The translations under genes and the position numbers were made by a program. Shown piece after piece: positions 2,644 to 53,453 of a stretch of 64,000 nucleotides of DNA. The notes under the pieces were generated by a model, which was given only the letters and a program-made list of their open reading frames with translations, made no database searches and was not told the DNA's origin. The stretch spans positions 525,419 to 589,418 of the forward strand of contig NZ_CP053069.1 of assembly GCF_013003965.1 (NCBI RefSeq). The letters are read 5' to 3'. Positions within the stretch are counted from its first letter, which is position 1. Each line of letters opens with the position of its first letter. The stretch comes from Usitatibacter rugosus. Its GTDB lineage: Bacteria; Pseudomonadota; Gammaproteobacteria; Burkholderiales; Usitatibacteraceae.

Positions 2644-4214
2644 TGTCCGAGCCCGTCACACCCGCGCAGGCGGGTGCCCAGACACCTCCGCTCCCAGGCG
2701 AGGTGCTGACCCGCGCCTTGCTCGGGTCGGTGTTCGTCATCGCCGCCTGCGGGCTCGTCTACGAGCTCATCGCGGCGGCGGCCTCCACCTACCTGCTGGG
2801 CGACTCGGTCACGCAATTCTCCGTCGTGATCGGCATCTACCTCGCGGCGATGGGCGTGGGCTCGTACGTCTCGAAGTACGTGACGAGCGGACTGATCGTG
2901 CGCTTCATCGACGTGGAGCTGATGATCGCGGTGCTGGGCGGCTTCTCGGCGGCGGTGATGTTCCTCTCGTTCGCCTATGCCGGGCCGGGCTTCCGCGTGG
3001 TGCTCTACGGGATCGTGGTGCTGGTGGGCATGCTCGTGGGCCTCGAGATCCCGCTCGTGATGCGGATCCTGCGCGACCGCCTCGGCTTCAAGGACCTCGT
3101 GGCGCAGGTGCTGACGTTCGACTACCTGGGCGCGCTCGGTGTGTCGATTGCTTTCCCGCTCCTGCTCGCGCCGCGGCTGGGGTTGATCCGCACCGCGTTC
3201 CTCTTCGGGCTGATGAACGCCGTCGTGGCCGCGTGGGCCGCGTGGGTGTTTCGCGATCGGCTCGCCGGCCGTGCGTCGGGCGTGGCCGCGCGCTGCGCCG
3301 TCGTGATCGCGCTGCTGCTGGGCGGCTTCATGTTCTCCGAAGAGCTCACGAAGCTCTCCGAGGACCGCCTGTACGTGGACCAGATCGTGCACGCGGAATC
3401 GAGCCGCGCGCAGCGCATCGTCGTGACCCGCTGGCGCGACGACTGGCGCCTGTACCTGAACGGCAACCTGCAGTTCAGCTCCATGGACGAGTACCGCTAC
3501 CACGAGGCGCTGGTGCATCCCGCGCTCGCCACCATGCCGCACGCACGGCGCGCGCTGGTCCTGGGCGGTGGCGATGGCCTCGCCGTGCGCGAGATCCTCA
3601 AGTACAAGAACATCGAAGCCGTGACGCTGGTGGACCTCGATCCCGCGATCACGAAGCTCTTTACCGAGTCGCCAGCGATGCGCGCGCTGAACCACGACTC
3701 GCTGAACGACCCGAAGGTGAAGGTCGTTAATGCCGACGCCTTCATCTGGCTCGAGAACTCGCGCGACTTCTTCGATTTCGTCGTGATCGACTTCCCCGAT
3801 CCCAGCAACCACTCGCTGGGCAAGCTCTACACCACGTCGTTCTACTCGATGCTGAAGCGCCGCCTCTCCGCGAAGGGGATGGCGGTGATCCAGTCCACCT
3901 CGCCGCTCTACGCGCGCAAGTCGTACTGGTGCGTGGTGACGACTCTCGAGGAAGCCGGCTTCGAGGTCACGCCCTTCCATGCGCTGGTGCCGTCGTTCGG
4001 CGAATGGGGCTTCATCATCGCCTCGCAGGAGCCGTGGATCCCGCCCGCGAAGTACGACGTGCCGGGCCTGCGCTTCATCACGCCCGAGATCCACGCCGCG
4101 CTGCTCGCCTTCCCCAAGGACATGGAGCGCGTGCCCACCGAAGTGAACCGCCTCAACAACCACGCGCTCGTCCGCTACTTCGAATCCGAGTGGCGCCGCG
4201 GCCCCGCCCAATAA
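2643..4214 (+). CDS. speE: polyamine aminopropyltransferase (spermidine synthase) fused to an N-terminal polytopic membrane domain
   Basis: GTG start overlapping the DUF350 stop. N-terminal roughly 200 aa with multiple TM helices (LLGSVFVIAACGLVYELIAAAASTYLLGDSVTQFSVVIGIYLAAMGVGSY). C-terminal spermidine-synthase fold motifs (LVLGGGDGLAVREILKY, VDLDPAITKLF, VVIDFPDPSN). Confidence 0.75.
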   Translation: MSEPVTPAQAGAQTPPLPGEVLTRALLGSVFVIAACGLVYELIAAAASTYLLGDSVTQFSVVIGIYLAAMGVGSYVSKYVTSGLIVRFIDVELMIAVLGGFSAAVMFLSFAYAGPGFRVVLYGIVVLVGMLVGLEIPLVMRILRDRLGFKDLVAQVLTFDYLGALGVSIAFPLLLAPRLGLIRTAFLFGLMNAVVAAWAAWVFRDRLAGRASGVAARCAVVIALLLGGFMFSEELTKLSEDRLYVDQIVHAESSRAQRIVVTRWRDDWRLYLNGNLQFSSMDEYRYHEALVHPALATMPHARRALVLGGGDGLAVREILKYKNIEAVTLVDLDPAITKLFTESPAMRALNHDSLNDPKVKVVNADAFIWLENSRDFFDFVVIDFPDPSNHSLGKLYTTSFYSMLKRRLSAKGMAVIQSTSPLYARKSYWCVVTTLEEAGFEVTPFHALVPSFGEWGFIIASQEPWIPPAKYDVPGLRFITPEIHAALLAFPKDMERVPTEVNRLNNHALVRYFESEWRRGPAQ

Positions 4215-4271
4215 AGGGGTCAGACCACTTTATTCATCGCTGTTCGAATAAAGTGGTCTGACCCCTTTATT
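4210..4271. repeat. palindromic element, inverted pair of the 25-bp unit AATAAAGGGGTCAGACCACTTTATT separated by 12 nt; includes the speE TAA stop
   Basis: Perfect 25-bp arms. Member of a six-locus family (see findings). No U-tract follows. Confidence 0.8.
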
Positions 4272-4279
4272 GTTCTTCC

Positions 4280-5905
4280 ATGCAACGCCGCGACTTTCTC
4301 CTCACCTCCGCCGCCCTCGCAGCTGCCGGTTGCGCGAAGGGTGATCCTCCGCTCCCGCCGGGCGAGATGCTGGCGACGAGCCACGCGCTGGGCCACCGGA
4401 TGCGCGATGGCGGGCTGCCGGCAGCGACCGAGAAGCGCAAGGCGAAGGTTGTGATCGTGGGCGCAGGCCTCTCGGGGCTCTGTGCGGCATGGCGGCTGCG
4501 GCGGGCGGGCTTCAGCGACTTCGAGATCCTCGAGCTGGAGAGCGCCCCCGGAGGCAACGCACGCTGGGGCGAGAGCGCCGTGACGCGCTACCCGTGGGGC
4601 TCGCATTACATCCCGCTGCCGACGCGCGAGTCACGGGCCTTGCGACTCCTGCTCGCGGAGCTGGGCGTGCTCCTCGGCGACCCCGAAGCGGAAACACCGC
4701 GCTATGAAGAGCGGGCCCTATGCCAGGCGCCGCAGGAACGCCTCTACCGCAACGGCACCTGGGACGAGCACCTCGTGCCGATCGCCGGTCGTTCGCGCGG
4801 CGAGGTCGAGGAGTGGGAGCGGTTCCAGCGCCGCATGCGGGAATTCCAGCAGCTGCGCGGCAAGGACGGACGCCGCGCGTTCGTGATTCCCGTGGAGCAT
4901 TCGTCGCGCGACCCGGCCATCCTCGCGCTCGACAGGATCACGATGGGTGCGTGGCTGCAGGCCGAGGGCTTCCACTCCGAGGCGGTGCGCTGGGTCGTGA
5001 ACTACGCGTGCCGCGACGACTATGGCTGCGAGTACCGCGTGGCGTCCGCCTGGGCGGGCATCCACTACTTCGCATGCCGCGTCGGTTCCGCGCGCGACGC
5101 CGACCACGACGCGGTGCTCACCTGGCCCGAAGGCAACGGCTTCCTCGTGCGGGAGCTCATGAAGCGCTACGCATTCGACGTGAAGCCCGCGGCGATCGTG
5201 CACCGCATGGAAGAGACCGCGAAAGGCGTCACGCTGACGGCATTCCTCGCTCGCGAGAACCGCTCCGTCGCCATCGAAGCCGAGCACGTGATCTGGGCAG
5301 CCCCTTTCGGATTCGCCGCGCGTGCCTTCGCCAACGCACCCCCACCCATCGCCGAGGCCCTTCGAAGCTACGACTACGCGCCGTGGATCACCGCCAACGT
5401 CGCGCTCTCGGAGCTGCCATACATCCACCACGGAGCGCCGCTCTCCTGGGACAACGTGCTCTACGACAGCCCGTCGCTCGGCTACGTCGTCGCCACGCAC
5501 CAGGGCCTCCAGGCGCGGCCCGGGCCGACCGTCCTCACCTGGTACCTCCCCCTCGCCACCGACACGCCCGCCGCGGGTCGCAAGCGCCTACTCGAAACGC
5601 CGCGCGAAGCCTGGGCGGAGATGGCTCTAGCGGAGCTGGCCAAGCCGCACCCCGAGATCCGCCAGATCGCCCAGCGCGTCGACGTCTTCGCCAACGGGCA
5701 CGCGATGGTGATCCCGAGGCCCGGACGCATCTGGGGCGGCGCAGCCCAGGTGATCGCTGCGCGCAAGGGCAGGGTCCACTTTGCCCACGCCGATGCAAGC
5801 GGCGTTTCCCTCGTCGAGGAGGCGGCCGATCGCGGGGTCGCCGCAGCCGAATCCACCCTGGCCAGTTTTAGCGTACGTACATCGAGCATGCGGTGGAATA
5901 GTTGA
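4280..5905 (+). CDS. Tat-signal FAD/NAD(P)-binding oxidoreductase, flavin amine-oxidase-like (possible polyamine oxidase)
   Basis: N-terminus MQRRDFLLTSAALAAAGCA (twin-arginine motif). Dinucleotide-binding motif VVIVGAGLSGLCAAWRL..ELE. 541 aa. Adjacent to the speE-like gene. Confidence 0.6.
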   Translation: MQRRDFLLTSAALAAAGCAKGDPPLPPGEMLATSHALGHRMRDGGLPAATEKRKAKVVIVGAGLSGLCAAWRLRRAGFSDFEILELESAPGGNARWGESAVTRYPWGSHYIPLPTRESRALRLLLAELGVLLGDPEAETPRYEERALCQAPQERLYRNGTWDEHLVPIAGRSRGEVEEWERFQRRMREFQQLRGKDGRRAFVIPVEHSSRDPAILALDRITMGAWLQAEGFHSEAVRWVVNYACRDDYGCEYRVASAWAGIHYFACRVGSARDADHDAVLTWPEGNGFLVRELMKRYAFDVKPAAIVHRMEETAKGVTLTAFLARENRSVAIEAEHVIWAAPFGFAARAFANAPPPIAEALRSYDYAPWITANVALSELPYIHHGAPLSWDNVLYDSPSLGYVVATHQGLQARPGPTVLTWYLPLATDTPAAGRKRLLETPREAWAEMALAELAKPHPEIRQIAQRVDVFANGHAMVIPRPGRIWGGAAQVIAARKGRVHFAHADASGVSLVEEAADRGVAAAESTLASFSVRTSSMRWNS

Positions 5906-5956
5906 CCCGCCCCAAGCGTTGACCCGTGGCGGGAATCCAAACCCAGGGAGAAGAAA

Positions 5957-14936: not shown

Positions 14937-15464
14937 TCATTTTGCGCTGATGTTGGCCTTGTCCCAGTCCTTGAACCAGGGCTTGAGGTCGTCCTGCGAC
15001 ATGGACACCTTCGACACGTGCACTTCGACGCAGTGGGTTCCAGCCGCCGCCGACACAAGATGCGCATGCAGGAGAACGGCTCCACTCGCGGGTGCCGCGT
15101 AGATGGCGATGAAGGTCTGAGCGTTGATGCGGGCCTTGTAGATCTGCGCCTGCGGTGGCACGCCGGGTCTTTTCGAAAGCGCTCCTATGGTCGAGCTGGC
15201 GCATTCGAGCGCGCTCATTCCGGCGTCGGCGGTCGGCATCAGGACGGATACGGTGTACGACCCTTCGGATCCCAGCAACCTCGCGTGAGGCTGCGTCGCG
15301 CTCATGGGATGACGCTCCATCTTCATCGCGGGAACGTTCGGCACGGTGATGGTGACGTCGGGGGACGAAACGTCGATGACCAGCTCACCCGCTCCGCAGA
15401 GTGGCGCGAACAGTGTGGCGATCGCGAGCGTTGCGAGCTTCACCAGGGTCATGCGAGTCTCCAT
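14937..15464 (-). CDS. secreted hypothetical protein
   Basis: Signal peptide MTLVKLATLAIATLFAPLCGA. No domain. Confidence 0.4.
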   Translation of the reverse strand: METRMTLVKLATLAIATLFAPLCGAGELVIDVSSPDVTITVPNVPAMKMERHPMSATQPHARLLGSEGSYTVSVLMPTADAGMSALECASSTIGALSKRPGVPPQAQIYKARINAQTFIAIYAAPASGAVLLHAHLVSAAAGTHCVEVHVSKVSMSQDDLKPWFKDWDKANISAK

Positions 15465-15536
15465 GGAGTTCGAGGTGAACCTACGTCAAGGCGAGGAACA
15501 ACGACGTCTTTCGGCGCTACCCGGAGCCGGGAAATT

Positions 15537-15563
15537 GAATAAAGTGGTCTGACCCCTTTATTC
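15537..15563. repeat. single copy of the palindromic unit (GAATAAAGTGGTCTGACCCCTTTATTC)
   Basis: Same 25-bp unit as at 4210-4271. Lies in a divergent intergenic region. Confidence 0.8.
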
Positions 15564-15590: not shown

Positions 15591-16682
15591 ATGATGACCG
15601 TCGTCCTCGCGTTCCTGCACGTCTATATCGGCCTGCGCCTCCTGGCCCCTTTCCCGCTTCCCGTGCAGATCGCCGGCTGGGCTGTCCTGGCGGCCGTCCT
15701 CTGGTTCCTGCCCCGGGGCTTTCGCTTCCGCGGCGACAGCCCGTGGCGGATCTTCCTGCCCTGGGTGATGACGGGCGTCTTTTCGTCGTTGCTGGTGCTC
15801 ACCTTTGTGCGCGACTTCGCGCTGATCGGCCTCGCCATCGCCAACGCCCGCCTGCACGACGCGTGGGTGCAGCCCTCGGCCATCCTCGTCGCGGCACTCG
15901 TTCCGGTGGTCACGCTGATCGGCTATGCCATGGCGCGTCGGACAGCCCGCGTGACGGACGTGAAGGTGCCGATCGCCAACCTCCCCGCGGCGCTCGAGGG
16001 CTTCACCATCGCGCAGATCAGCGACATCCACGTCGGGCCGACGATCAAGAAACCCTACGTCGATGCGATCGTCGACCGCGTGAACGGCCTCAAGGCCGAC
16101 ATGGTGGCGATCACCGGGGATCTCGTGGACGGCAGCGTCGGCGAGCTCGCGAAAGACACCGCCCCGCTCGGCCGCCTCGCATCGCGCCACGGCACGTACG
16201 TCGTCACCGGCAATCACGAGTACTACTCTGGAGCGCGCGCTTGGGTCGCGGAGCTGCGAAGGCTCGGCGCGCAGGTGCTGATGAACGAGCACGTGGTTCT
16301 GGAGCATGACGGTGCCCAGGTCACCGTGGCCGGCGTCACCGACTACTCCGCGCATCACTTCGATGCCACGCAGAAGAGCGATGCCGTCGCCGCGTTGGAC
16401 GGCGCACCGGAAGGCGCGCCGAAGGTGCTGCTCGCCCACCAACCGCGCTCGGCTGCCAATGCCGCGCAAGCCGGTGCCGATCTGCAACTGTCGGGCCACA
16501 CGCATGGGGGTCAGTTCTGGCCTTGGAATCTCTTCGTGCGCCTGCAGCAGCCGTTCACCGCGGGCCTGCACAAGCTCGGCAAGATGTGGGTGTACATCAA
16601 TCGGGGCACGGGCTACTGGGGGCCGCCGAATCGATTCGGCATTCCTTCGGAGATCACGCGCATCCGCCTCGTCCGCGCCTAG
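15591..16682 (+). CDS. membrane-anchored metallophosphoesterase (calcineurin-like)
   Basis: N-terminal TM helices. Motifs DIHVGP, GDLVDG, GNHEY, SGHTHGGQ. Confidence 0.8.
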   Translation: MMTVVLAFLHVYIGLRLLAPFPLPVQIAGWAVLAAVLWFLPRGFRFRGDSPWRIFLPWVMTGVFSSLLVLTFVRDFALIGLAIANARLHDAWVQPSAILVAALVPVVTLIGYAMARRTARVTDVKVPIANLPAALEGFTIAQISDIHVGPTIKKPYVDAIVDRVNGLKADMVAITGDLVDGSVGELAKDTAPLGRLASRHGTYVVTGNHEYYSGARAWVAELRRLGAQVLMNEHVVLEHDGAQVTVAGVTDYSAHHFDATQKSDAVAALDGAPEGAPKVLLAHQPRSAANAAQAGADLQLSGHTHGGQFWPWNLFVRLQQPFTAGLHKLGKMWVYINRGTGYWGPPNRFGIPSEITRIRLVRA

Positions 16683-23683: not shown

Positions 23684-24478
23684 CTATGACCGTCGGCCCA
23701 GGACTCGCCGAAGCATCACGAGCGTGGCGAAGAAGGCGAGTCCGCCACCCCCGAACATCAGGATCTCGAACGGCCAGAGATTGTGGGAAGTGGGATCGCG
23801 CGACGTATCGATGACGATCCTCCCTACGACAACCGCCATGACAACCAGCGGTAGCGCAGCGAGCCAGCGCCACGGGCCGTGCCACTTCCAGATCGCAAAC
23901 AACGGCCCGAGCACGATCAAGACGACGAATCCCATCACCGCCAATCCGAAGCCCGACAAGAGCAGCGCCGAGGAGGCGGAGCTCCCCGATCGCGATTCGG
24001 TGCGCTCCTTCTTCACGATGGCCTCGTTCTCGAGGATGAGGTCCGTCACCCATTGCGCACGCGGCGGCGCCTCGGGACCGGGCAGGCCACTCCCGCGCAC
24101 ATCGACCGGAAAGCGCGCGACCTCGAATTCCTTGTAGGGCTTCCCGCCGCCGGCGCGAATGCGCACCTCTTCGACGCGCCCTTCGCCGTTGAGCGAGAAC
24201 CAGCCGAACGTGGTGCCGGAGCCGTCGTAGGCCCGCGAGACGTTGGTCTTCACGCGCGCGAGGGGCTGGCCTCCGGAGTAGGGCGTCGTCCAGAGCCGGA
24301 TATCCACCGCGCCGGAATACTCGATACGAAGGAACACCGGCTCATCGATGCCGACGACGGCCGGCATGGGCGGGCTCGTCTCGACGACCTTCACGCGCAG
24401 CTCTGCCGCCGCGCCGAGGGCCAGCGCGAACAGCGACGCGAAAAGAAGAAGGCCGCGTCGAGCGCGAGCCGGGCTCAC
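23684..24478 (-). CDS. hypothetical protein with signal peptide, periplasmic domain and C-terminal TM helices
   Basis: Signal peptide LLLFASLFALALGAAA. Three C-terminal hydrophobic helices. Confidence 0.45.
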   Translation of the reverse strand: MSPARARRGLLLFASLFALALGAAAELRVKVVETSPPMPAVVGIDEPVFLRIEYSGAVDIRLWTTPYSGGQPLARVKTNVSRAYDGSGTTFGWFSLNGEGRVEEVRIRAGGGKPYKEFEVARFPVDVRGSGLPGPEAPPRAQWVTDLILENEAIVKKERTESRSGSSASSALLLSGFGLAVMGFVVLIVLGPLFAIWKWHGPWRWLAALPLVVMAVVVGRIVIDTSRDPTSHNLWPFEILMFGGGGLAFFATLVMLRRVLGRRS

Positions 24479-25263
24479 GCCGTTCCGCGCACCGTGAGCG
24501 CGCGAGCCAGCAGGGCGATCGATCCGTCGGCAGCGGTGGGCAGCTTGGCGCGCAGCCGATCGCGCAGCTTGGCGCGGGTGGCCTCGTCGAGCGACATCGC
24601 ATACGCGGGTGCCGGTCCCTGGCCGCCGAGGAACGGCTGCCAGTACTCGTCGAAGCTCGCGAAGGGCGTCGGGATGTCGATGGCGCCCGTCTCGACGTTC
24701 TTGAATCCCGCCGCCGTGAAGGCGCTCGCGAGTCCCGGCGCGGTGACGAGCTGGAAGCGCACGCTCTCGTTCGCCGAGGCCGCTTCCGGGTTGATCTCCA
24801 CGGCCGCATCCCAGAAGTAGCGCATGAGGTCCATGCGGCCGGTGTAGTCCCAGATGTACGCCGCGATGGTGCCGTCCGGCGTGATCACGCGCTTCATCTC
24901 GGCCAGCGCCGCGCGCGCATCGGGCACGAAGTTGAGCACGAGCGCGGATACCACGACGTCCACCGAAGCGTCACCGAGGGGGATCGATGCGGCGTTGCCC
25001 TGCAGGAAAGTGGCGCGGCCCGCGAGGTTCTCCGCGGCCGACTTGAGGAATCCTTCGGAGGGCTCGACCCCTGTCACGCTCGCGGGCGACCCGTGGTCCG
25101 CGATCGCCGCGCAGAGCGCCCCGGTGCCACAGCCCACGTCGAGCCACCGGCGTGCCGCGGGAACGCCCAGCCACGAGACGAAGCGCGGAGCGACCTGCCG
25201 GCTCCACCGCCCGACGTAGCGTTCGTAGAGGTCTCCCTGCTTCCAGTTGTCGGACACACTCAT
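24475..25263 (-). CDS. class I SAM-dependent methyltransferase
   Basis: Motif I LDVGCGTGAL, post-I VTGVEPSE, motif II VDVVVSALVLNFV. Confidence 0.75.
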   Translation of the reverse strand: MSVSDNWKQGDLYERYVGRWSRQVAPRFVSWLGVPAARRWLDVGCGTGALCAAIADHGSPASVTGVEPSEGFLKSAAENLAGRATFLQGNAASIPLGDASVDVVVSALVLNFVPDARAALAEMKRVITPDGTIAAYIWDYTGRMDLMRYFWDAAVEINPEAASANESVRFQLVTAPGLASAFTAAGFKNVETGAIDIPTPFASFDEYWQPFLGGQGPAPAYAMSLDEATRAKLRDRLRAKLPTAADGSIALLARALTVRGTA

Positions 25264-25274: not shown

Positions 25275-25299
25275 AATAAAAGGGTCTGACCCTTTTATT
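25275..25299. repeat. perfectly palindromic variant of the unit (AATAAAAGGGTCTGACCCTTTTATT); contains the M20 gene TAA stop
   Basis: Lies in the 31-nt spacer between two co-directional genes. Confidence 0.8.
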
Positions 25300-30453: not shown

Positions 30454-30530
30454 GCCCCGCTGGCGGAATCGGCATACGCGCTGGTCTCAGGAACCAGTCC
30501 TTCCGGGTTCGAATCCCGGGCGGGGTACCA
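30454..30530 (+). tRNA. tRNA-Leu(CAG)-like, non-canonical: class I length (77 nt) with a 5-nt variable loop instead of the long Leu variable arm
   Basis: Hand-folded cloverleaf: acceptor GCCCCGC/GCGGGGT, Leu-type D-arm GGCGGAATCGGCATACGCG, anticodon loop CTCAGGA, T-arm CCGGG-TTCGAAT-CCCGG, A73, encoded CCA. Confidence 0.5.
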
Positions 30531-30536
30531 ATCAAC

Positions 30537-30614
30537 ACCCTTGTAGCTCAGCGGATCGAGAGCGCCTGGCTACGAACCAGGAGGACGGGAGTTCGATTCT
30601 CTCCGAGGGTGCCA
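30537..30614 (+). tRNA. tRNA-Arg(ACG)
   Basis: Acceptor ACCCTTG/CGAGGGT (A1:U72, one G-U). D-arm GCTC-AGCGGATCGA-GAGC. Anticodon arm CCTGG-CTACGAA-CCAGG. T-arm GGGAG-TTCGATT-CTCTC. G73 and CCA. Confidence 0.65.
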
Positions 30615-30615
30615 T

Positions 30616-30691
30616 GCCTTCCTAGCTGGTCTGGTGACAGCGCCGCGCCGAAATCGCGGAGAGCTCCGCTCGAAACGGAGGGGAGGCACCA
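30616..30691 (+). tRNA. tRNA-Phe(GAA)-like, non-canonical (C33, T-loop CTCGAAA); starts 2 nt after the Arg tRNA
   Basis: Full cloverleaf: acceptor GCCTTCC/GGGAGGC, D-arm GCTG-GTCTGGTGA-CAGC, anticodon arm CCGCG-CCGAAAT-CGCGG, 4-nt variable, T-arm CTCCG-CTCGAAA-CGGAG, A73 and CCA. Confidence 0.45.
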
Positions 30692-30760
30692 CGTTGTCGG
30701 ACATGCAACTTCATGCACTTAAGTCCATTAAGTCCATGAAGCTGCATCTCGGAAGTCCAC

Positions 30761-30834
30761 GGTGATCTTGGTGTAGCGACAGCACATCGCGCTGTGAACG
30801 CGAAAGGTCCGGTTCGATTCCGGCGATCACCCCA
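30761..30834 (+). tRNA. tRNA-His(GTG) with encoded G-1, C73 and CCA; T-stem slightly irregular
   Basis: G-1 then GTGATCT..GATCAC, C, CCA. Anticodon loop CTGTGAA. T-loop TTCGATT. Confidence 0.55.
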
Positions 30835-30991
30835 CTCACGTACAGCAGGGACCACATCCGCATGCGCCTCGAAAGAGGCACACCAGATTCGTCTGGAACG
30901 CATCGCAGAGGGCGAGGCTCGTGAGTCCTCCCTGGCGCGCTCGCCCGAAGTCGGAGGGGCGCGTACCGCGGTACGGGAAGGACGGATACAG

Positions 30992-31065
30992 GGCGACCTA
31001 GCTCAGCTTGGGAGAGCGCCGGCGAAAGCCGGAGGTCGTGGGTTCGAATCCCATTGTCGCCACCA
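30992..31065 (+). tRNA. tRNA-Ala-like cloverleaf whose anticodon loop is replaced by a GAAA tetraloop (74 nt, no anticodon)
   Basis: Acceptor GGCGACC/TGTCGCC, A73, CCA. Ala-type D-arm TAGCTCAGCTTGGGAGAGC. Anticodon arm CCGGC-GAAA-GCCGG. T-arm GTGGG-TTCGAAT-CCCAT. Confidence 0.45.
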
Positions 31066-31136
31066 TTGCATAGCTCAGTCTGGAAGAGCGATCGGCTGAT
31101 AACCGACTGTCGCGGGTTCGACTCCCGCTGCAAACC
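31064..31136 (+). tRNA. tRNA-Ile(GAT)-like with a defective acceptor stem; overlaps the CCA of the upstream tRNA-like; no encoded CCA
   Basis: D-arm GCTC-AGTCTGGAA-GAGC. Anticodon arm ATCGG-CTGATAA-CCGAC. T-arm GCGGG-TTCGACT-CCCGC. Acceptor has only 5 bp (TTGCA/TGCAA). Confidence 0.4.
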
Positions 31137-32567: not shown

Positions 32568-32665
32568 CCCCAGCCCGCTGGAGACGTCCGGTCGGCTGGG
32601 CTTTTTCTTGAATCCGAACGGCCCGGGCGCCGCGTCCTAGCTGGACACCGAGGACGGGAGGCTTC

Positions 32666-43225: not shown

Positions 43226-43347
43226 GGATGATTGGATGCGGTGATGTGTTGCTCTGGATTCCTTAGTTGCCGGCGGCCCCTTATTCAGTTCCCTATTTGC
43301 AGAAAATTACGTCGAAGGCGACGGGACCGGCAGCAGACCATCAGAAC

Positions 43348-44280
43348 ATGGTTCACCGCAAACTGGTCTTGGTTCCGGGTCGCGCGCCGAGGGGGAAGGA
43401 TTCGGCCGCGTTGCGACGGGAATGGCTGCAGGCGCTGGGGAGCGGCCTGCAGGATGCGGGCATCGATCGCCCGATCGACGAGGCCGACGTCCGCTTCGCC
43501 TTCTACGGCGACGTGCTCGACGCGCAGACCGAGGTGAAGGACCCCGCGGCGGAGGTGGTCGGGGGCGCGCATGCCACGCAGCCCGAGCGCGTCTTCGTGG
43601 GCGCCGTGCTGGAGGAAGCGCGCAAGGAAGCCGCGATCACGAAGGCGGAGCTCGCGGCGATCGGCGGCGTGCACATGATGCAGCGCGGTCCGCTGCACTG
43701 GGAGTGGTCCCAGGCCGTGATCAAGGCCATCGACCGCCATGTGCCCGGAGGCAACGGTGCGACGATCGCGCTCGCGGCCCACGACGTGTACCAGTATCTC
43801 CACAACCCCGGCTTCGCGAAATCCGTCGATGACGTCGTGAGGCGCTCGATGCCGTCGGACGAGGATGCGGTCGTCGTCGCCCACTCGCTGGGCTCGGTGA
43901 TCGCCTACAACCTGCTCAAGATGGAAGGCGGCGAACGGCGCTGGAGGGTCCCGCTCTTCGTGACGCTGGGCTCGCCGCTCGCGATCACCGCGATCCGCAA
44001 TTCGCTCGGCGCGCGGGAATTTCCTTCCTGCGTGCGGCAATGGTTCAACGCCTTCGACGAGCGCGACACCGTGGCCGTCTATCCGCTCGACAAGCGCAAC
44101 TTCAACGTCGAGCCCGAGGTTATCGCCAACAAGGCCGACGTCGACAACGACACCGAGAACCACCACGGCGCCTCGGGCTACCTGTCGGACCGGGGCGTCG
44201 CGGAAAAAATAATGGGGTCAGACCCTAATTGCGGATCGCTTCCTCGAGGAGGCGACCGACGACGATCATCTGGGGAATGA
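43348..44280 (+). CDS. alpha/beta-fold hydrolase (putative lipase/esterase)
   Basis: Internal ATG chosen. Nucleophile elbow VVAHSLGSV. About 310 aa. Confidence 0.55.
   Translation: MVHRKLVLVPGRAPRGKDSAALRREWLQALGSGLQDAGIDRPIDEADVRFAFYGDVLDAQTEVKDPAAEVVGGAHATQPERVFVGAVLEEARKEAAITKAELAAIGGVHMMQRGPLHWEWSQAVIKAIDRHVPGGNGATIALAAHDVYQYLHNPGFAKSVDDVVRRSMPSDEDAVVVAHSLGSVIAYNLLKMEGGERRWRVPLFVTLGSPLAITAIRNSLGAREFPSCVRQWFNAFDERDTVAVYPLDKRNFNVEPEVIANKADVDNDTENHHGASGYLSDRGVAEKIMGSDPNCGSLPRGGDRRRSSGE
44204..44230. repeat. degenerate copy of the palindromic unit (AATAATGGGGTCAGACCCTAATT)
   Basis: Core GGGGTCAGACCC conserved. Overlaps the ends of two convergent genes. Confidence 0.5.
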
Positions 44281-45031
44281 CGAAGCCGAAGCGCTCGAAG
44301 GCGGCGCCGATGCCGGGATCGGGCGCGGGCGGCGCGTCCATTGTTGGAACGATGGCATCCGCGGCGCGGGACATGGCCGCGCGAATCGTGGCGACGCCGC
44401 GATCGATGGAGCCGTCGCGGAAGCGCGGCAGCAGGCACGTCACGAGCAGCGCGAGAAACTGCGGCCGATGGCCGAAGTGGCGGTAAAGGCTTTGCACGAC
44501 GCGCGGTCCGTTGGCACTGCCGGGCGCCGCGACCAACTCCAGGAGGGCGCTCACCTCGGGGGATAGATCGGCGGGAGCCGTCATCGCCACGAGGGGACCC
44601 GGAGCCACGGGTGGTGACCACGCGCAGGCATCGAGAGCAACGGAAGCCTTGGCACCACCCAGCACGCGTGAGAGGCACGTCACGGTGAGCAAGTTCACCG
44701 GATTCGCGAGGTTGTAGGCGCGGGCGACGATGCGAATCTCCTCGATCGCCGCATCGTCCACGCCCAGTGCCGTGAGCGCCTCGCGGGGAAACGCAGCAAT
44801 CGGATCGAGCGGCGTTTCCCCGGCGATCTTCCACGCCGTCTCCTGCAGCCGACCCGACTTCCACGCCGGGCCGATCGCGCCCCACGTCCACTCGAGGCCG
44901 CCGGGCAGCGTGGCCAGGTGGCGGAAGATCAGCGCCACCATCGGTACCGCGCCCAGCCGCCGCATCTCCGCGTAGATGCGCGCCTTCTCGCCCGAGGCCG
45001 CGCTTTCCGCGAGCTCCGGCAGCAACGCCAC
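44225..45031 (-). CDS. hypothetical protein (possibly DehI-like), last gene of the catabolic operon
   Basis: GTG start overlapping the upstream TAG stop (TAGTG). Domain call is by weak recollection only. Confidence 0.35.
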   Translation of the reverse strand: MALLPELAESAASGEKARIYAEMRRLGAVPMVALIFRHLATLPGGLEWTWGAIGPAWKSGRLQETAWKIAGETPLDPIAAFPREALTALGVDDAAIEEIRIVARAYNLANPVNLLTVTCLSRVLGGAKASVALDACAWSPPVAPGPLVAMTAPADLSPEVSALLELVAAPGSANGPRVVQSLYRHFGHRPQFLALLVTCLLPRFRDGSIDRGVATIRAAMSRAADAIVPTMDAPPAPDPGIGAAFERFGFVIPQMIVVGRLLEEAIRN

Positions 45032-46008
45032 TACTGGACCTTGATGTTGTTGCGGCGTGCGACGTCGCCCCACTGAGCGAGCGTGCCCTTCGTGAACACC
45101 AGCCACTGGTCGCGCGGCATGTTGTCCACGACGAGGCCGGCGGCGACGATCTTCGCCTGGATGTCCGGATTGGAGAGGACCTTGCGAAGGTCCGCGGAGA
45201 TCTTCGCCACGACATCCGGCGGCGTCGATTTCGTCGCGACCATGCCGCCCCAGCCTTCACCGGCGAAGCCCGGGTAGCCCAGCTCGGCGATCGTCTGCAC
45301 GTCCGGCAACTGCGGAGCGCGCGATGAGCCGGTCGACGCGAGTGCGCGCAACTTTCCGCTCTTGATGTGCGGCAGGTTCGCCGGCACGCCATCGACGGAG
45401 AGCTGGATCTGGTTGCCCAGCATGTCCTGCACGACCTGCGCGCTGCCCTTGTACATCACGCCCTGGATGTCCACGCCCGCGGTCTGCTTGAAGAGCTCGC
45501 CGGTCAAATGCTGCGTGGTGCCCGCGCCGGGGTAGCCCCAGTTCAGCTTGCCGGGATTCGCCTTGGCGGCATCGACCAGCTCCTTCAGCGATTTGTACGG
45601 CGCCTGGTCGTTGGCGACGATGATGAGCGGGTTCCGGAAGATCGGGCCGATCAGCACGAAATCGTTGAAGGGGTCGTAGGGAAGCTTGTCGATGATCGCG
45701 GGGTTCACGACCATCGCGGCGCTGGTGCCCATGAGCAGTGTGTAGCCGTCGCCCTTGGCTTCGCGCGCGGTCACCATGCCGGGGATGGCGGCACCCCCGC
45801 CGATGTTGTCGATCACGACGGGCTGGCCCCACTCGCGGCCGAGCGCCTCGCCGACGATGCGAGCGGCGATGTCCGTCGCCTGCCCCGCGGGGTAGGGGAC
45901 GATGAGCTTCACGGGCTTGTCGGGGAATTTCTGGGCCCACGCGGTGGCGCCGACGGTGGCCAGCAGCAGCGCGAACGCCGCGGATGCGATGCGTCGAATC
46001 ATGTTCAT
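45031..46008 (-). CDS. Bug-family (TctC-like) periplasmic binding protein
   Basis: Signal peptide, QKFPDKPVKLIVPYPAGQ, GYTLLMG. Confidence 0.8.
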   Translation of the reverse strand: MNMIRRIASAAFALLLATVGATAWAQKFPDKPVKLIVPYPAGQATDIAARIVGEALGREWGQPVVIDNIGGGAAIPGMVTAREAKGDGYTLLMGTSAAMVVNPAIIDKLPYDPFNDFVLIGPIFRNPLIIVANDQAPYKSLKELVDAAKANPGKLNWGYPGAGTTQHLTGELFKQTAGVDIQGVMYKGSAQVVQDMLGNQIQLSVDGVPANLPHIKSGKLRALASTGSSRAPQLPDVQTIAELGYPGFAGEGWGGMVATKSTPPDVVAKISADLRKVLSNPDIQAKIVAAGLVVDNMPRDQWLVFTKGTLAQWGDVARRNNIKVQ

Positions 46009-47865: not shown

Positions 47866-48552
47866 TCAGAAACCGTCGAAGGTGGCGAACTCGCTCGCCG
47901 GGGCGCGCTCGGTGACGAGCTTGTTCTCGGGGGCGCTCGGGTCCTCGTGGCCGAGGGCCATGCCGCAGACGATGATCTCGTCCTGCGGGATGTTCATTTG
48001 CGCGCGCAGTACCGCGTGCACGTTGGCGAGCGCGGCTTGCGGGCACGTGTCGAGGCCCAGGCCGCGCGCGGCGATCATCACGGCGCCCAGGTAGATGCCG
48101 AGGTCGAGCCAGCTTCCGATCTCGAGGTCCTCGTCGAGCGTGAAGATGAGACCCACGGGCGCGTCGAAGAAGTCGTAGTTGCGGCGGCGTTGCTTCTCGG
48201 TCGCCTCGAAGTCGCCCTTCCTGATGCCCATCAGGCCGTAGAGGTCCCAGCCGATCTTGCGGCGCCGCCCGAGGAAGGGCTCGCGCCAGTTCACCGGGTA
48301 GTAATTCCACTCGCGCTTGTGCGCTTCGTCGCCGTCGCGGTCGAGGGCGGCATGGATGGCCTTCGAGACCGCGAGGCGCTTTTCGCCCGCGATCACGCGC
48401 ACCTTCCACGGCTGGATGTTGCTGCCCGAGGCGCTGCGGGAGGCGAGCGTGAGGATCTCCTCGACGGTGGCGCGCGGCACGGGCGTCGGCAGGAACGCGC
48501 GGATCGAGCGGCGCGTGCGGATCGCTTCGTGGGCGCTGATCGCCGTCGTCAC
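47866..48552 (-). CDS. nitroreductase-family protein
   Basis: RRSIRAFLPTPV...SGSNIQPW nitroreductase motifs. Confidence 0.75.
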   Translation of the reverse strand: MTTAISAHEAIRTRRSIRAFLPTPVPRATVEEILTLASRSASGSNIQPWKVRVIAGEKRLAVSKAIHAALDRDGDEAHKREWNYYPVNWREPFLGRRRKIGWDLYGLMGIRKGDFEATEKQRRRNYDFFDAPVGLIFTLDEDLEIGSWLDLGIYLGAVMIAARGLGLDTCPQAALANVHAVLRAQMNIPQDEIIVCGMALGHEDPSAPENKLVTERAPASEFATFDGF

Positions 48553-48866
48553 GGAATGCGCAGGTCCACCAGCGGCCCGTGCTGCTGGGCGCCGTACACG
48601 TCGCGATCGAAGGCGGATCCGCTGCCGTGCTCGCCCGTCGTCCTCGGCACCGTGATCTTGATGGCCCGCACGCGCTCGAACGGCATGATGCGCACGAGGT
48701 CTTCGGCCACGCCGTAGAGCGGCGCGATGGCCTTCGCGGAGAGGGCGCCCGAGCCGATCACGCGGTCGTAGACGGCGCGGTCGTTGAACATGAGGTCGAT
48801 CGTGATCTGGAAGGGGCCGGCGTTCTTGCTTCTCATCACGTCGGCCAATTCACCTAGCGTTGACAC
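48549..48866 (-). CDS. DUF4387-like small protein (usual partner of AtuA/DUF1446)
   Basis: 105 aa, GTG start. Position after the AtuA-family gene. Confidence 0.45.
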   Translation of the reverse strand: MSTLGELADVMRSKNAGPFQITIDLMFNDRAVYDRVIGSGALSAKAIAPLYGVAEDLVRIMPFERVRAIKITVPRTTGEHGSGSAFDRDVYGAQQHGPLVDLRIP

Positions 48867-48876: not shown

Positions 48877-49000
48877 CCCTAAGGCGAAAGGCGTCCTCCG
48901 CAGATAAACACAGATAAACGCGGATAAACCCTGTATTGGGCTTGGCTCTGCATGGTTTTATCTGCGTGTATCTGTGTTTATCTGCGGAGGGAGCCTTTAG
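48877..49000. repeat. AT-richer 120-bp imperfect palindrome with three direct GATAAAC repeats per arm, in the AtuA-DUF4387 intergenic space
   Basis: Left arm CCTAAGGCGAAAGGCGTCCTCCGCAGATAAACACAGATAAACGCGGATAAACC mirrors right arm GGTTTTATCTGCGTGTATCTGTGTTTATCTGCGGAGGGAGCCTTTAGG. Confidence 0.7.
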
Positions 49001-49002
49001 GT

Positions 49003-50361
49003 TTAAATAGATTCAAGTTCCAGCGGGAACAGCGCGAGCTGATCGTCCACGTCCATGAGGTGATAGACGCTGAACTCGTAAACCGCACCGGCGGAAGTAT
49101 CGGAAGGAGAAGCCGGGAACGCGAGGTTGCCCGCCGTCGTCTTGCGCCCCGGGAACGGGCAATGCAGCAGGGACGATCGCGCGAGAGAGAGCACGTGGTC
49201 CGCGATCTCCTGCGTCTTTCCGATCGCTTCCACCATCGCGCCCACCTCATGCGGGATGTTGTTGCGCTCCGGTTCCAGCAGGCCGAGCACGGCGTCGCGG
49301 CCGTAGTAGCGAAAGCCGAGCTTGTAGTCGCTGTCGGGAACGCCGCCGAGGTTGCGCTTCACGGCGGCGCGCACCGTCTCCTCGATAATCGGGAGGTTCG
49401 CGATCACGGTACGGTCGCGGATGCCGGCGATGGTGAACGAGCGGAAGCCCGCGAGACGCGCGCCTTCCAGCTTGATGCGAAGCCGCGGCGTGGGAATGAA
49501 ACGCGAGCCGGAGACGCGCACGGTCTGCTCGTCGACCTGCTCGAAATCCGCGCCCGTCATGTCCACGTCGCCCTCGGGCTCGTAGAGGATGTGCGGGTTG
49601 CCCTGCTCGTACATCGTGTGGGCGGCCACCGAGTCCGGCGTGCAGATGCGCTGCTTGTGCAGCGGGCGGACGAGGAAATGGTCCTTGCGGATCGTCCCCA
49701 GCAAGCTGTCGTTCGGGGCGAGCGGGATCGCGCACTGCGCTCCGCATTCCATGATCTTCGCCATGTGAAGCGCCAGGCCCGGATCGAAGCCGCGGGCGAT
49801 GGGGAGCGCCGCGTAGATCGCGGTGTCGCACGAACGGCCGGTGAGCACCACGTCCGCGCCCTTGTCGAGCGCGTGGGCGAAAGGATCCGTTCCCATCTGG
49901 CCGACGATGCGCACGCTGTCCATCACGGCTTCTTCCGTGAGCTCGGGGACATCCGCCATCGGGACGATCTTCTTCGCGCGCACGGCATCGCGCACGCGTT
50001 CCTTGGGGATCTCCGAGTGGATGGTCGCGAGCTTGAAGTGCAGGCCTTCGTCGCGCGCGATCTCCAGCAGGATCTTCTTGAAGAGCTGGAGGTTGGGCTC
50101 CCCGCCGCCCATGCCCGCGGAGCCGATCACCAGCGGCACCTTCGCGGCGCGCGCGTTCTTGAGTGCCAGGCCCAGGTCGCGGCGGATCTGCGGCGGCTTC
50201 ACGAGCGATTGGCCGGAGCCGAGGTAGAACGGGCCCGGGTCCGTGGAGCCGGCGTCGGCGCCGACCATCGCGGGATCGAGCTCGCAGCCGGCCGCGAGGC
50301 TGCTGGCTTCGAAGCCGTAGCCCAGGCAGCCATTCACCGAAACGATGCGCATCTCCTGCAT
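49003..50361 (-). CDS. AtuA-family (DUF1446, acyclic-terpene-utilisation-like) protein
   Basis: MQEMRIVSVNGCLGYGFEASSL start typical of the AtuA family. 453 aa. Confidence 0.6.
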   Translation of the reverse strand: MQEMRIVSVNGCLGYGFEASSLAAGCELDPAMVGADAGSTDPGPFYLGSGQSLVKPPQIRRDLGLALKNARAAKVPLVIGSAGMGGGEPNLQLFKKILLEIARDEGLHFKLATIHSEIPKERVRDAVRAKKIVPMADVPELTEEAVMDSVRIVGQMGTDPFAHALDKGADVVLTGRSCDTAIYAALPIARGFDPGLALHMAKIMECGAQCAIPLAPNDSLLGTIRKDHFLVRPLHKQRICTPDSVAAHTMYEQGNPHILYEPEGDVDMTGADFEQVDEQTVRVSGSRFIPTPRLRIKLEGARLAGFRSFTIAGIRDRTVIANLPIIEETVRAAVKRNLGGVPDSDYKLGFRYYGRDAVLGLLEPERNNIPHEVGAMVEAIGKTQEIADHVLSLARSSLLHCPFPGRKTTAGNLAFPASPSDTSAGAVYEFSVYHLMDVDDQLALFPLELESI

Positions 50362-50363
50362 GG

Positions 50364-51341: not shown

Positions 51342-51360
51342 TGCGATCTCCGGGGGCGGA

Positions 51361-51450
51361 ATTGGCGAAATCAGGGTCAGACCACCATTTTCGTTTCTGG
51401 CCACTCGACCGGCCGCGAAAATGGTGGTCTGACCCTGATTTCGCCAATTT
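51361..51450. repeat. variant inverted pair of the palindromic unit (33-bp arms AATTGGCGAAATCAGGGTCAGACCACCATTTTCG, 23-nt spacer) in the divergent GntR / catabolic-operon promoter region
   Basis: Shares the GGTCAGACC core with the other five loci. Confidence 0.75.
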
Positions 51451-51491
51451 CAGATTGACTTTGTCCGTTTGTCCGTACAATATGCCGGGGC

Positions 51492-52256
51492 ATGAAGATT
51501 GTCAACGACGTCCGCCCCACCACGATGTACGCCGCCCTCGCGCGCCAGCTCACCGGCGAGATCGAATCGGGCCGCTACAAGGTCGGGCAGAAGATCCCCA
51601 CCGAGGCCGAGCTGCAGCAGCGCTTCGACGTGAGCCGCCACACGGTTCGCGAGGCGCTGCGCGATCTCAAGGACCGGGGGCTGCTCACCGCCCGCGCCGG
51701 CATCGGCACGGTGGTGCGCGCCAAGGGCTCCTCCACGCGTTTCATGCAGGGCATCGGCACGCTGAAGGAGCTCATCCAGTTCGTCGAAGCCACGCGCATG
51801 CAGGTGCTGAAGCGCCGCGTGCTCGTCGCGGATGACGATCTCGCCGAGCGCCTGGCGGTGAAGGCCGGCCAGGAGCTGCACGAGGCCTTCGTGCTGCGCT
51901 TCCTGCCGAAGGAAACGGCTCCGGTGGCCTCCATGTACATCTACGTGCGCGCCGAGCACGGCAACGTCCTCGACCACATCGACAAGGCGGGCCAGCCGGT
52001 CTTCAGCCTGGTCGAGAAGCACCACGGCGTTCGCATCGTGGAGGTGCGCCAGCAGATCGTCGCCTCGAACCTCGAGCCCTCGGAGGCGCGCGTGCTGAAG
52101 GCGCGCACCAGCACGCCCGCGCTGAACATCTCGCGCCAGTATTTCGACAACCAGGATCGCATGGTGATGGCGAGCGTCGGCCTCTATCCCAGCGACCGGT
52201 TCAGCCACAACACGAAGTTCCGAATCCAGAGCCTGGACGAGAAGGAAGCCCCATGA
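51492..52256 (+). CDS. GntR-family transcriptional regulator, HutC/UTRA subfamily
   Basis: wHTH region EAELQQRFDVSRHTVREALRDL. C-terminal UTRA-like domain. Confidence 0.85.
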   Translation: MKIVNDVRPTTMYAALARQLTGEIESGRYKVGQKIPTEAELQQRFDVSRHTVREALRDLKDRGLLTARAGIGTVVRAKGSSTRFMQGIGTLKELIQFVEATRMQVLKRRVLVADDDLAERLAVKAGQELHEAFVLRFLPKETAPVASMYIYVRAEHGNVLDHIDKAGQPVFSLVEKHHGVRIVEVRQQIVASNLEPSEARVLKARTSTPALNISRQYFDNQDRMVMASVGLYPSDRFSHNTKFRIQSLDEKEAP

Positions 52257-53386
52257 AACCCCTCAACGGCGTGCGCATCGTCTCGGTGGAGCAGTTCGGA
52301 GCGGCGCCCTATGGCTCGATGTTCCTCGCCGATCTGGGTGCGGAAGTGATCAAGGTGGAGAACGCGGCCATCGGCGGCGACCCCGCGCGCAAGACCGGCC
52401 CGTACTTGCTGGGCGACACCGACAGCGAATATTTCCAGACCTGGAACATGAACAAGAAGAGCGTCACGCTCGACCTTCGCACGCCCGAGGGCAAGGCGTC
52501 GCTCGAGAAGCTCGTGATGAGCGCCGAGGTGGTGCTGAACAACCTGCGCGGCGACCTGCCCGCGAAGATGGGCCTGGACTACGCGGCGCTCTCGAAGCTC
52601 AAGCCCGCGATCGTCTGCGTGCACTTGTCCGCGTACGGGCGCGACAACGAGCGCGCCTCGTGGCCGGGCTACGACTATTTGATGCAGGCCGAAGCGGGGC
52701 TGATGCACCTGACGGGTGAGCCCGACGGCCCGCCCACGCGCATCGGCGCGCCTTCGATGATCGACCACACCACGGGCCTCACCGCGATGGTGGGCCTGCT
52801 CTCCGCGCTGATCCAGGCGCGCGCGACGGGCAAGGGCTGCGACGTCGACACGTGCCTCTTCGATGCCGCGCTGCATCAGCTCGGCTATGCCGCGATCTGG
52901 TATCTCAACGAGGGCTACACGCCGGAGCGCCAGACGCGCAGCGCGCACTTCTCCGTGGCGCCGGTGCAGACGTTCCCCTCCGCCGACGGCTGGATCTTCG
53001 TGATGTGCCTCACGGACAAGTTCTGGAACGCGCTGCTGGGTGTGTTGAATCAGCCGGCGATCACCGCCGACGCGCGCTTCGCCAACCAGAAGTCGCGCCT
53101 CGAGAACCGTGACGCGCTCACGAAAGCCCTCGATGCCGAGTTCCAGAAGCATCCGACCACGCATTGGCTGAAGGTGCTGGGCGGCGTGCTGCCGATCGCG
53201 CCGGTCTACGAATTGAGCACCGCGCTCGACAGCCCCTTCCTCCGCGCGACCGACATGATCAAGACCGTGCCGCATCCCGCGCGCGCCGATCTTCGCGTGC
53301 TCGCCAATCCCATCAAGATCAACGGGAAGCGTTTGTCGCAGGAAGTCTGTTCGGCACCGGGCGCCGACAACGCCGCGATTCTGTAA
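52253..53386 (+). CDS. CaiB/BaiF-family (type III) CoA transferase
   Basis: GVRIVSVEQFGAAPYGSMFLADLGAEVIKVE N-terminus. ATGA overlap with the GntR gene. Confidence 0.85.
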   Translation: MKPLNGVRIVSVEQFGAAPYGSMFLADLGAEVIKVENAAIGGDPARKTGPYLLGDTDSEYFQTWNMNKKSVTLDLRTPEGKASLEKLVMSAEVVLNNLRGDLPAKMGLDYAALSKLKPAIVCVHLSAYGRDNERASWPGYDYLMQAEAGLMHLTGEPDGPPTRIGAPSMIDHTTGLTAMVGLLSALIQARATGKGCDVDTCLFDAALHQLGYAAIWYLNEGYTPERQTRSAHFSVAPVQTFPSADGWIFVMCLTDKFWNALLGVLNQPAITADARFANQKSRLENRDALTKALDAEFQKHPTTHWLKVLGGVLPIAPVYELSTALDSPFLRATDMIKTVPHPARADLRVLANPIKINGKRLSQEVCSAPGADNAAIL

Positions 53387-53390
53387 GACG

Positions 53391-53453
53391 AATAAAGGGG
53401 TCAGACCACTTTATTGCGAACGACGAGCAATAAAGTGGTCTGACCCCTTTATT
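53391..53453. repeat. palindromic element, inverted pair of the 25-bp unit with a 13-nt spacer, just after the CoA-transferase TAA stop
   Basis: Arms identical to those at 4210-4271. Confidence 0.8.

Follow-up and report, generated by a model that had tools for sequence, protein, structure and literature searches.

What is the A/T-rich palindrome that recurs between genes at six loci of the 64-kb stretch of DNA analyzed here (the window), part of the 4.56-Mb chromosome of the soil betaproteobacterium Usitatibacter rugosus (Betaproteobacteria, Nitrosomonadales, Usitatibacteraceae)? The window has a G+C content of 65.8%, which makes the A/T-rich arms of the repeat conspicuous. An earlier reading, made from the sequence only, had offered a repetitive extragenic palindromic (REP)-like element, a regulon of operator sites, or both. 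Our analysis upholds the first answer and not the second. The six loci very probably form a family of non-autonomous palindromic repeats of the REP/REPIN type, a REPIN being an inverted REP doublet that forms a hairpin and is better conserved than single REPs (Bertels & Rainey 2011, PMC3116915). Three lines of evidence speak for a REP-like family: units that flank genes for RAYTs (tyrosine transposases that are associated with REPs), a fixed orientation of the units within doublets, and turnover at orthologous sites.

The motif GGTCWGACC has nine matches in the window against 0.64 expected, and none of 100 dinucleotide-preserving shuffles reached nine. These nine units occupy six intergenic loci, about one locus per 10.7 kb, each of which lies within 1 nt of the position given by the sequence-only reading, and relaxed-pattern searches of the window found no copies beyond them. 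With up to three mismatches allowed, the 25-mer AATAAAGKGGTCWGACCMCTTTATT is present at 4210, 4247, 15538, 25275 (two mismatches), 53391 and 53429, with none expected; these matches and the complementary arms confirm the inverted pairs already noticed at 4210-4271 and 53391-53453.

The anatomy of the units points to copying. The unit AATAAAGGGGTCAGACCACTTTATT, with the core GGGGTCAGAC(C), is a 25-nt imperfect palindrome in which position 8 (G) stands opposite position 18 (A). The same stem-breaking mismatch, read as GGGG...CCAC or as its complement GTGG...CCCC (GGGGTCAGACCAC), is found in five of five exact units, which therefore are copies of one another and not independently selected sites; an identical repeated defect is expected from the copying of a common template, not from selection for a terminator or a symmetric operator. 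Because its central base is A or T, each unit has a polarity, and all three doublets run from the GTCAGAC form ('A-form') to the GTCTGAC form ('T-form'). Three loci are inverted doublets of this kind (REPINs), with arms 94–100% complementary and core-to-core spacings of 37 and 38 nt. Predicted RNA folds reach –50 to –61 kcal/mol for the 25-mer doublets and –74 to –77 kcal/mol for a longer variant at 51360-51449, with z scores of about –10 to –13, and this variant has the 12-mer GGGTCAGACCAC in common with the main family. Of the three singlets in the window, two are degraded and the third, at 15538, is exact. The exact singlet (z –1.4 to –2.3) and the decayed copy at 44204 fold little or no better than shuffled sequence, and the perfect-palindrome copy at 25275 does somewhat better, with z between about –3.5 and –4. 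The unit consensus nnAAnAAAGGGGTCAGACCCCTTTnTTnn has no GTAG or GT[AG]G head at the foot of the hairpin, which places the family outside the canonical GTAG REP super-family (RAYT Groups 2/3).

The link to transposase genes comes from related DNA, within a set of 174 loci fetched from genomes and metagenomes (L-numbers below). On metagenome contig L065, exact copies of the window 25-mer flank a 233-aa gene in inverted orientation, and the TAA stop of the gene lies inside the right-hand unit. The protein scores 39.4 bits against Pfam Y1_Tnp (cut-off 23) and, with an E value of 4e-22 and 78.5 bits, falls just below the cut-off of 80 for NCBIfam NF047646, 'REP-associated tyrosine transposase'. Contig L050 shows a like arrangement with the AAGAAAG sub-family of the repeat; its protein and that of L065 both pass Pfam Y1_Tnp, and NF047646 is the sole NCBIfam match of either. 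In the isolate 'Betaproteobacteria bacterium GR16-43' (L165), a 55%-identical homologue lies between AATAAAGGGGTCAGACTCCTTTATT and its inverse, and here too the repeat contains the stop codon of the gene. Metagenome-assembled genomes (MAGs) of the candidate phyla radiation (CPR) and of Phycisphaerae (L022, L006 and L013) encode a protein of about 224 aa directly between two repeat copies, and these proteins match Pfam Y1_Tnp (E about 1e-12) and carry the HUH motif MPNHWHLVL and a YQGRYKS motif. The 25-mer AATAAAGGGGTCWGACCCCTTTATT abuts RAYT genes that are 42% identical, on both sides in L013 (Phycisphaerae) and on one side in L006 (Vogelbacteria). All six RAYT genes reached through the repeat (L065, L050, L165, L006, L013 and L022) have the GTCAGAC form upstream and the GTCTGAC form downstream, which is the relative orientation of the units within doublets.

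This association extends to homologues that were reached through the protein. Five RAYT homologues fetched by protein similarity have GGGGTCAG-type repeats at one or both flanks, and GGGGTCAG stands at one or both flanks of 11 of the 11 RAYT genes examined, on both in the six reached through the repeat. Homologues with 45–47% identity have GGGGTCAGACTCGA-type repeats upstream, in L174 together with a downstream doublet, and two CPR homologues have terminal repeats only, of the type AATGGGGTCAG(T/C)C, with no dispersed copies in 20 kb. Identity among the RAYT examples ranges from 24 to 55%, and GGGGTCAG persists as it falls to 24–26% across all. The HUH and RY motifs are conserved in the RAYT proteins examined, which also have a Y-x3-NP motif ('RYIELNP') and a C-terminal extension. 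Similarity of the L065 RAYT to proteins of known structure is marginal (ISDra2 TnpA, PDB 2xm3, E 0.013; Escherichia coli TnpA_REP, PDB 4er8, E 0.019).

Two loci in this set also show neighboring features of their own. In the CPR locus L176 (10001-12612), two different Y1_Tnp genes lie 1.3 kb apart, each with an unrelated flanking hairpin, AATGGGGTCAGTC... and GGAGGGCTACCCTCC. In L171 (4810-6057), a PALP-domain gene that lies 1.1 kb downstream of a RAYT homologue is split by the gene for a group II intron reverse transcriptase (RVT_1 and GIIM domains).

The third line of evidence is the comparison of orthologous sites in close relatives, namely four metagenome contigs (L166-L168 and L170; CaiB 95–96% identical) and the isolate GR16-43 (L169). 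The window's own CaiB is 100% identical to a U. rugosus protein. Gene order is mostly kept, the metagenome contigs carrying TctC (–), GntR (+), CaiB (+) and DUF2059 (–) genes; in GR16-43 a nitroreductase gene, not TctC, lies upstream of the GntR gene. The 90-nt element found upstream of the GntR gene in the window is absent from all five relatives; in the metagenome contigs the intergenic region measures 62–64 nt without it, and GntR has the same length in each (254 aa). At the 3' end of CaiB, the closest relatives have a single unit, TAATTAGGGTCAGACCCTAATTA (at 3819-3841 in L166), whose TAA and TTA ends are the stops of both convergent genes; the variant in L170 is decayed, and GR16-43 has a doublet of its own sub-type (L169 7123-7217). 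This site has seen either long persistence with replacement in place or recurrent insertion at a hot spot. Such differences in presence and in variant at orthologous sites speak for mobility or turnover of the repeat.

Relatives of the repeat are taxonomically widespread. A scan with the 25-mer of one genome per GTDB species returned 30 stretches, all from soil or groundwater MAGs and none from an isolate, and all 30 contain the perfect palindrome AATAAAGGGGTC[AT]GACCCCTTTATT in DNA of 36–70% G+C. The MAGs include Vogelbacteria, Saccharibacteria, Vicinamibacterales, Phycisphaerae, Binatia, Bdellovibrionales, Coxiellaceae and Burkholderiales, and the identical 25-mer given above occurs in MAGs of Patescibacteria, Planctomycetota, Acidobacteriota, Binatota, Bdellovibrionota and Pseudomonadota. 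An artefact of metagenome assembly, suggested by the absence of isolates among these 30, is ruled out by the presence of the motif in the isolate GR16-43 and on megabase contigs. A feature of phages is likewise ruled out, because only 14 stretches on viral contigs contain the repeat. A blastn search of a plasmid collection with an 81-nt query gave no real matches, and a literature search for the core sequence gave unrelated primer matches only.

In metagenomes, the asymmetric 19-mer AAAGGGGTCAGACCACTTT, specific to the window, matched at least 120 stretches, with a median G+C of 0.64. In the 120 metagenome loci listed, 40 of the 44 close pairs run 'A then T' and none 'T then A', and the core-to-core spacings have modes at 37–38 and 64–66 nt, to be compared with 37 and 38 nt for the doublets of the window. 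The arms fall into sub-families that differ by compensatory changes, AACAAAG/CTTTGTT (48 copies), AATAAAG/CTTTATT (34) and AAGAAAG/CTTTCTT (13). Across 88 distinct units, 83% of cells pair, double-change cells number 139, compared with 67 in shuffles, and the covariation score of 0.242 exceeds the values obtained when the partners are slid (at most 0.092); the units were chosen by their core, so this covariation supports, without proving, a conserved dyad or hairpin symmetry. The long variant at 51360-51449 has no exact copy among the 174 fetched loci. A second doublet sub-family (AAGAAWTAGGGTCAGACCAMCATTYC) resembles it and shares contig L156 with the AATAAAG type, and its related doublets in L068 and L156 rule out that the long variant is a unique element. 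The arm type TAATTAGGG...CCCTAATTA of the decayed 44204 copy also occurs in close relatives. Separately, in several MAGs (L002, L006, L010, L012 and L022) the right half of a unit is repeated in tandem one to three more times with a period of 15–19 nt (e.g., ...CAGACCCCTTTATTA CAGACCCCTTTATTA), and extra AATAAAG left halves sometimes precede the unit; slippage at the hairpin or aberrant processing could produce such half-unit copies.

Among described systems, the closest in several respects are the RAYT-like 'TIRYT' genes, or 'TIRtrons', which are flanked by terminal inverted repeats sharing GGGGWSAS (Di Nocera, De Gregorio & Rocco 2013, PMC3733652). TIRYT is subclass 2.1 of Quentin et al. 2018 and equals the Group 1 RAYTs of Bertels, the most widely distributed branch (PMC6006769; for the distribution of Group 1, Bertels et al. 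2017, PMC5581495). Like TIRtrons, the elements described here combine Y1 genes with inverted repeats that fit GGGGWSAS (here GGGGTCAG) and have a very wide taxonomic spread, and some TIRYT repeat families are also self-complementary, moderately abundant and arranged in dimers or clusters (PMC3733652). They differ in that a compact self-complementary unit of 25 nt is amplified as REP singlets and REPIN doublets and that an identical 25-mer occurs in several phyla, membership in the subclass being suggested here by indirect features. The REPIN-RAYT systems of Pseudomonas and enterobacteria (PMC3116915) resemble the family in their spaced inverted doublets that form long hairpins, their extragenic location, their presence or absence between relatives, the flanking of a single RAYT gene by the same sequence, and the better conservation of doublets, here relative to two of three singlets. 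The present family, in contrast, conserves a central GGGGTCAGAC(C) instead of a GTAG or GT[AG]G head, has A/T-rich arms in a 66% GC genome and belongs with a different RAYT branch. The E. coli REP/BIME (bacterial interspersed mosaic element) system with its TnpA_REP (PDB 4ER8; PMC3479197, PMC8266576) shares the HUH/Y1 nuclease fold family and a hairpin substrate, whereas sequence similarity is marginal, the recognition elements are others and the present family is known from sequence alone. REP ends that supply stop codons are a further likeness, described for GTAG REPs, which often donate TAG stops (PMC3733652).

By analogy with REP-RAYT and IS200/IS605 elements, the hairpin would be recognized in single-stranded DNA, cut and rejoined by a RAYT-type HUH/Y1 tyrosine transposase, which may belong to the 'TIRYT' or Group 1 branch with its genes flanked by GGGGWSAS inverted repeats. 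Two inverted units with their spacer would be the likely replicative form (the REPIN), and singlets its decaying remnants. New copies would insert into narrow gaps between genes and into the final few codons of a gene, where the TAA/TTA of the A/T-rich arms could turn into a stop codon at the insertion site. Effects on host expression, through hairpins at mRNA 3' ends or in the TctC leader, would be secondary.

Several points weigh against this reading. The window contains no RAYT gene, and no named Usitatibacter protein is found among the 120 RAYT homologues listed, a weak negative as most of these are unnamed; a cognate RAYT is presumably encoded elsewhere in the U. rugosus genome. The count of copies given here covers the 64-kb window, at the density stated above. 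The flanks of the one clean empty site, that of the GntR promoter region, have diverged, which leaves a target-site signature unreadable, and all lineages examined have a repeat of the family at the CaiB 3' site, which could also reflect selection for a hairpin there. Transposition by the TIRYT/Group 1 branch is proposed from the biochemistry of IS200/IS605 and TnpA_REP, and a DNA motif together with protein length suggests the assignment of the RAYTs to subclass 2.1/Group 1. Finally, Quentin et al. found no REP-like sequences beside subclass 2.1 genes (PMC6006769).

Three rival explanations deserve attention. The units could be operators of the HutC-type GntR regulator encoded at 51492-52256, forming a DasR/dre-like regulon in which a dimer sits on the GGTC-W-GACC dyad. 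The product of this gene is indeed a GntR protein with a UTRA domain, of the HutC sub-family, and the sequence-only reading was right that a copy (51361-51450) lies in its divergent promoter region, between the TctC start and the GntR –35 box. The likeness of the core to DasR/HutC operators, to which the same reading pointed, proves superficial. The palindrome does resemble the dre consensus TGGTCTAGACCA in its GGTC...GACC and in the nearby HutC-type regulator gene (PMC4398421, PMC4333415), but dre is a 16-bp dyad with adjacent half-sites, TGGTCT-AGACCA (PMC4398421), and the half-sites are 1 nt apart in GGTC-W-GACC versus 2 nt in dre, which leaves an odd center with one base fewer. The shared stem mismatch also breaks the dyad symmetry that a dimer would want, and placement does not suit a regulon, with four of the six copies either at the 3' end of a gene or squeezed in between closely spaced co-directional genes and two in divergent promoter regions. 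The motif is moreover linked to transposase genes and flanks them across unrelated phyla. The decisive observation is that the relatives lack the 90-nt element while the adjacent 27-nt promoter/operator block, TTGTCCGTTTGTCCGTACAA, is almost invariant in them, and the HutC-operator idea is ruled out on conservation, geometry, placement and phylogenetic spread; we consider it next to untenable. The block CTTTGTCCGTTTGTCCGTACAATATGC next to the element (51453-51484), almost invariant in all relatives, contains the TTGACT –35 box and the TACAAT –10 box of the GntR gene, with TTGTCCGTACAA as the conserved box and a TTGT-N4-ACAA dyad over the –10 box that is inverted to TTGTACGGACAA in GR16-43. This dyad block is likely a much better candidate for an autoregulatory GntR/HutC operator. 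A promoter-like site for TctC lies on the opposite strand at 51505-51477, so the inserted hairpin of about –75 kcal/mol would be part of the probable TctC leader.

Selection by the host for bidirectional intrinsic terminators, or for hairpins that protect mRNA 3' ends, with the spread of the units being incidental, is unlikely, though less so than the operator idea. It draws on the A-rich and T-rich arms around a G/C stem, on one doublet that passes a simple terminator scan, on the two loci between convergent genes, and on the CaiB 3' site, where some hairpin of the family is found in every lineage examined; roles in transcription termination and mRNA stabilization have been proposed for REPs of other bacteria (PMC3733652). 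The sequence-only reading had dismissed terminators in part on the ground that no U-tract follows, which needs correction, as the last bases of the unit (CTTTATT) form a weak T-rich tract. This tail makes a poor U-tract, however, and the singlets carry the mismatch and fold weakly. Four of the six loci lie away from the ends of transcription units: two are in divergent promoter regions, where no terminator is needed, and two lie 8 and 11 nt before the next start codon of a co-directional gene, with no room for a promoter. The canonical terminators of the window differ in sequence (e.g., 56876-56893 and 32586-32601), and selection of this kind would not keep an identical stem mismatch or a fixed doublet orientation. 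The repeats may still have a secondary role as RNA hairpins; a scan of the window against Rfam found five tRNAs only and no RNA family at any repeat locus. The units might instead be bound by a different conserved DNA-binding protein of the host, one of the nucleoid or topoisomerase class, as has been proposed for E. coli BIMEs. This would explain a 13-nt core conserved in phyla with 36–70% GC, and REPs/BIMEs are reported to be bound by several proteins (PMC2817692). The co-occurring RAYT clade, however, accounts for the cross-phylum core, six of six RAYT genes reached through the repeat being flanked by a GGGGTCWGAC unit in fixed orientation and the five homologues fetched by similarity having GGGGTCAG-type flanks as well. 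No candidate protein has been identified, and the CPR genomes in which repeats flank the RAYT gene only show no dispersed copies in 20 kb. We regard a host protein of this sort as highly improbable.

On the REP/REPIN reading, the position of the units at gene ends has a simple explanation. The TAA stop of the speE-like gene (4212-4214) is inside the left unit of the 4210 doublet, that of the M20 peptidase gene (25295-25297, minus strand) inside the 25275 unit, and the right arm of the decayed 44204 copy supplies the TAG stop of the minus-strand gene 44225-45106. For CaiB, the stop (53384-53386) precedes the 25-mer by 4 nt and sits on the margin of the extended palindrome, which the DUF2059 stop abuts as well. 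The earlier claim that three copies begin on the upstream TAA thus stands for the speE-like and M20 genes and not for CaiB, where the stop merely abuts. Insertion at a TAA/TTA target, which had been suggested from it, finds no support: the AATAAAG arm overlaps 10 of 21 nearby stops in the metagenome loci, whereas sub-families without TAA in the arm are located 7–29 nt after stops there, and the clean insertion site has no TAA. Stop codons are embedded because the A/T-rich arms contain TAA or TAG and insertion occurs close to gene 3' ends. The M20 C-terminus looks about as long as those of its homologues. Among 120 CaiB orthologues, most end ...VLGxxxAAAD at 384–387 aa, and CaiB of U. rugosus and its nearest relatives stops about eight residues earlier, at ...AAIL; in GR16-43 the last seven residues (GVRLPLS) are encoded by the repeat. 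These differences in the tail imply that the element invaded the extreme 3' end of CaiB more than once or was replaced in place.

The repeat is an ordinary kind of element, newly seen in U. rugosus, and the constancy of the 25-mer across phyla is its one modestly unusual aspect. These sites should be annotated as REP/REPIN repeats, not as operators of a regulator or as terminators. They reshape gene ends, supplying the stops of the speE-like and M20 genes and of the gene at 44225 and leaving a CaiB tail about eight residues shorter. The family would tie the least understood and most widespread RAYT branch (TIRYT/Group 1) to an amplifiable hairpin defined by its sequence, and GR16-43, an isolate with a complete genome and an intact REP-RAYT pair, makes the branch approachable by biochemistry. 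A bolder idea, which we put forward tentatively and think rather doubtful, is that the GGGGTCWGACCCC hairpin is the recognition element of one very broad RAYT clade, nearly unchanged while the proteins diverged to 24–55% identity, with true REPIN populations in some lineages including Usitatibacteraceae. If it were true, the published view of Group 1/subclass 2.1 RAYTs as lacking REPs would be contradicted, and a pan-bacterial REP super-family would stand beside the GTAG and CGTC ones.

Table 1. The six repeat loci of the window, with their units, predicted RNA folds and neighboring genes
Feature	Position	Units and arms	Fold	Setting
REPIN doublet	4209-4272	units 4210-4234 (AATAAAGGGGTCAGACCACTTTATT) and 4247-4271 (inverted, AATAAAGTGGTCTGACCCCTTTATT); 12-nt spacer between the 25-mers; 27-nt arms, 100% complementary	–50 and –56 kcal/mol, z about –10	takes up the 65 nt that separate two co-directional genes, speE-like (2544-4214, +) and TAT-signal FAD amine oxidase (4280-5905, +), the latter starting 8 nt past the element
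REP singlet	15538-15562	exact copy in T-form orientation, AATAAAGTGGTCTGACCCCTTTATT		divergent; signal-peptide protein gene (14937-15464, –) on one side, metallophosphoesterase gene (15591-16682, +) on the other
REP singlet	25275-25299	2 mismatches to the 25-mer; perfect palindrome AATAAAAGGGTCTGACCCTTTTATT		between co-directional minus-strand genes, M20 peptidase (25295-26557) and methyltransferase (24475-25263), the latter starting 11 nt past the element
Decayed REP singlet	44204-44230	AATAATGGGGTCAGACCCTAATT at 44208-44230		between convergent genes; minus-strand gene 44225-45106 on one side; plus-strand open reading frame 43267-44280 reads through the element
REPIN, second sub-family	51360-51449	34-nt arms (AATTGGCGAAATCAGGGTCAGACCACCATTTTCG) 51360-51393 and 51416-51449, 100% complementary; 22-nt spacer		divergent; TctC start (about 51343, –) on one side, –35 box of the GntR-UTRA gene (51492-52256, +) on the other
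REPIN doublet	53382-53462	units 53391-53415 and 53429-53453; palindrome extends to 36-nt arms	–58 and –61 kcal/mol	between convergent CaiB-type CoA-transferase (52253-53386, +) and DUF2059 (53460-54827, –) genes

Two loci (4210 and 25275), not one as had been thought, lie between co-directional genes. Codon-position G+C plots were used to judge the open reading frames at 15538 and 44204; by this measure the plus-strand frame 15018-15542, which ends in the 15538 element, is spurious, and there is no upstream stop codon at that locus.

Other features of the window include the five tRNA genes, which are clustered at 30454-31133 (Rfam RF00005), 3' of a good sigma-70-like promoter at 30062-30090. 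At 48880-49005 there is an imperfect inverted repeat of 126 nt (52-nt arms, 85% complementary, 22-nt spacer) that has no sequence relation to the REP family. It fills the gap between the co-directional minus-strand AtuA-like (49003-50361) and DUF4387 (48549-48866) genes, and each of its arms contains three GATAAAC-type repeats (CAGATAAAC, CAGATAAAC and CGGATAAAC).

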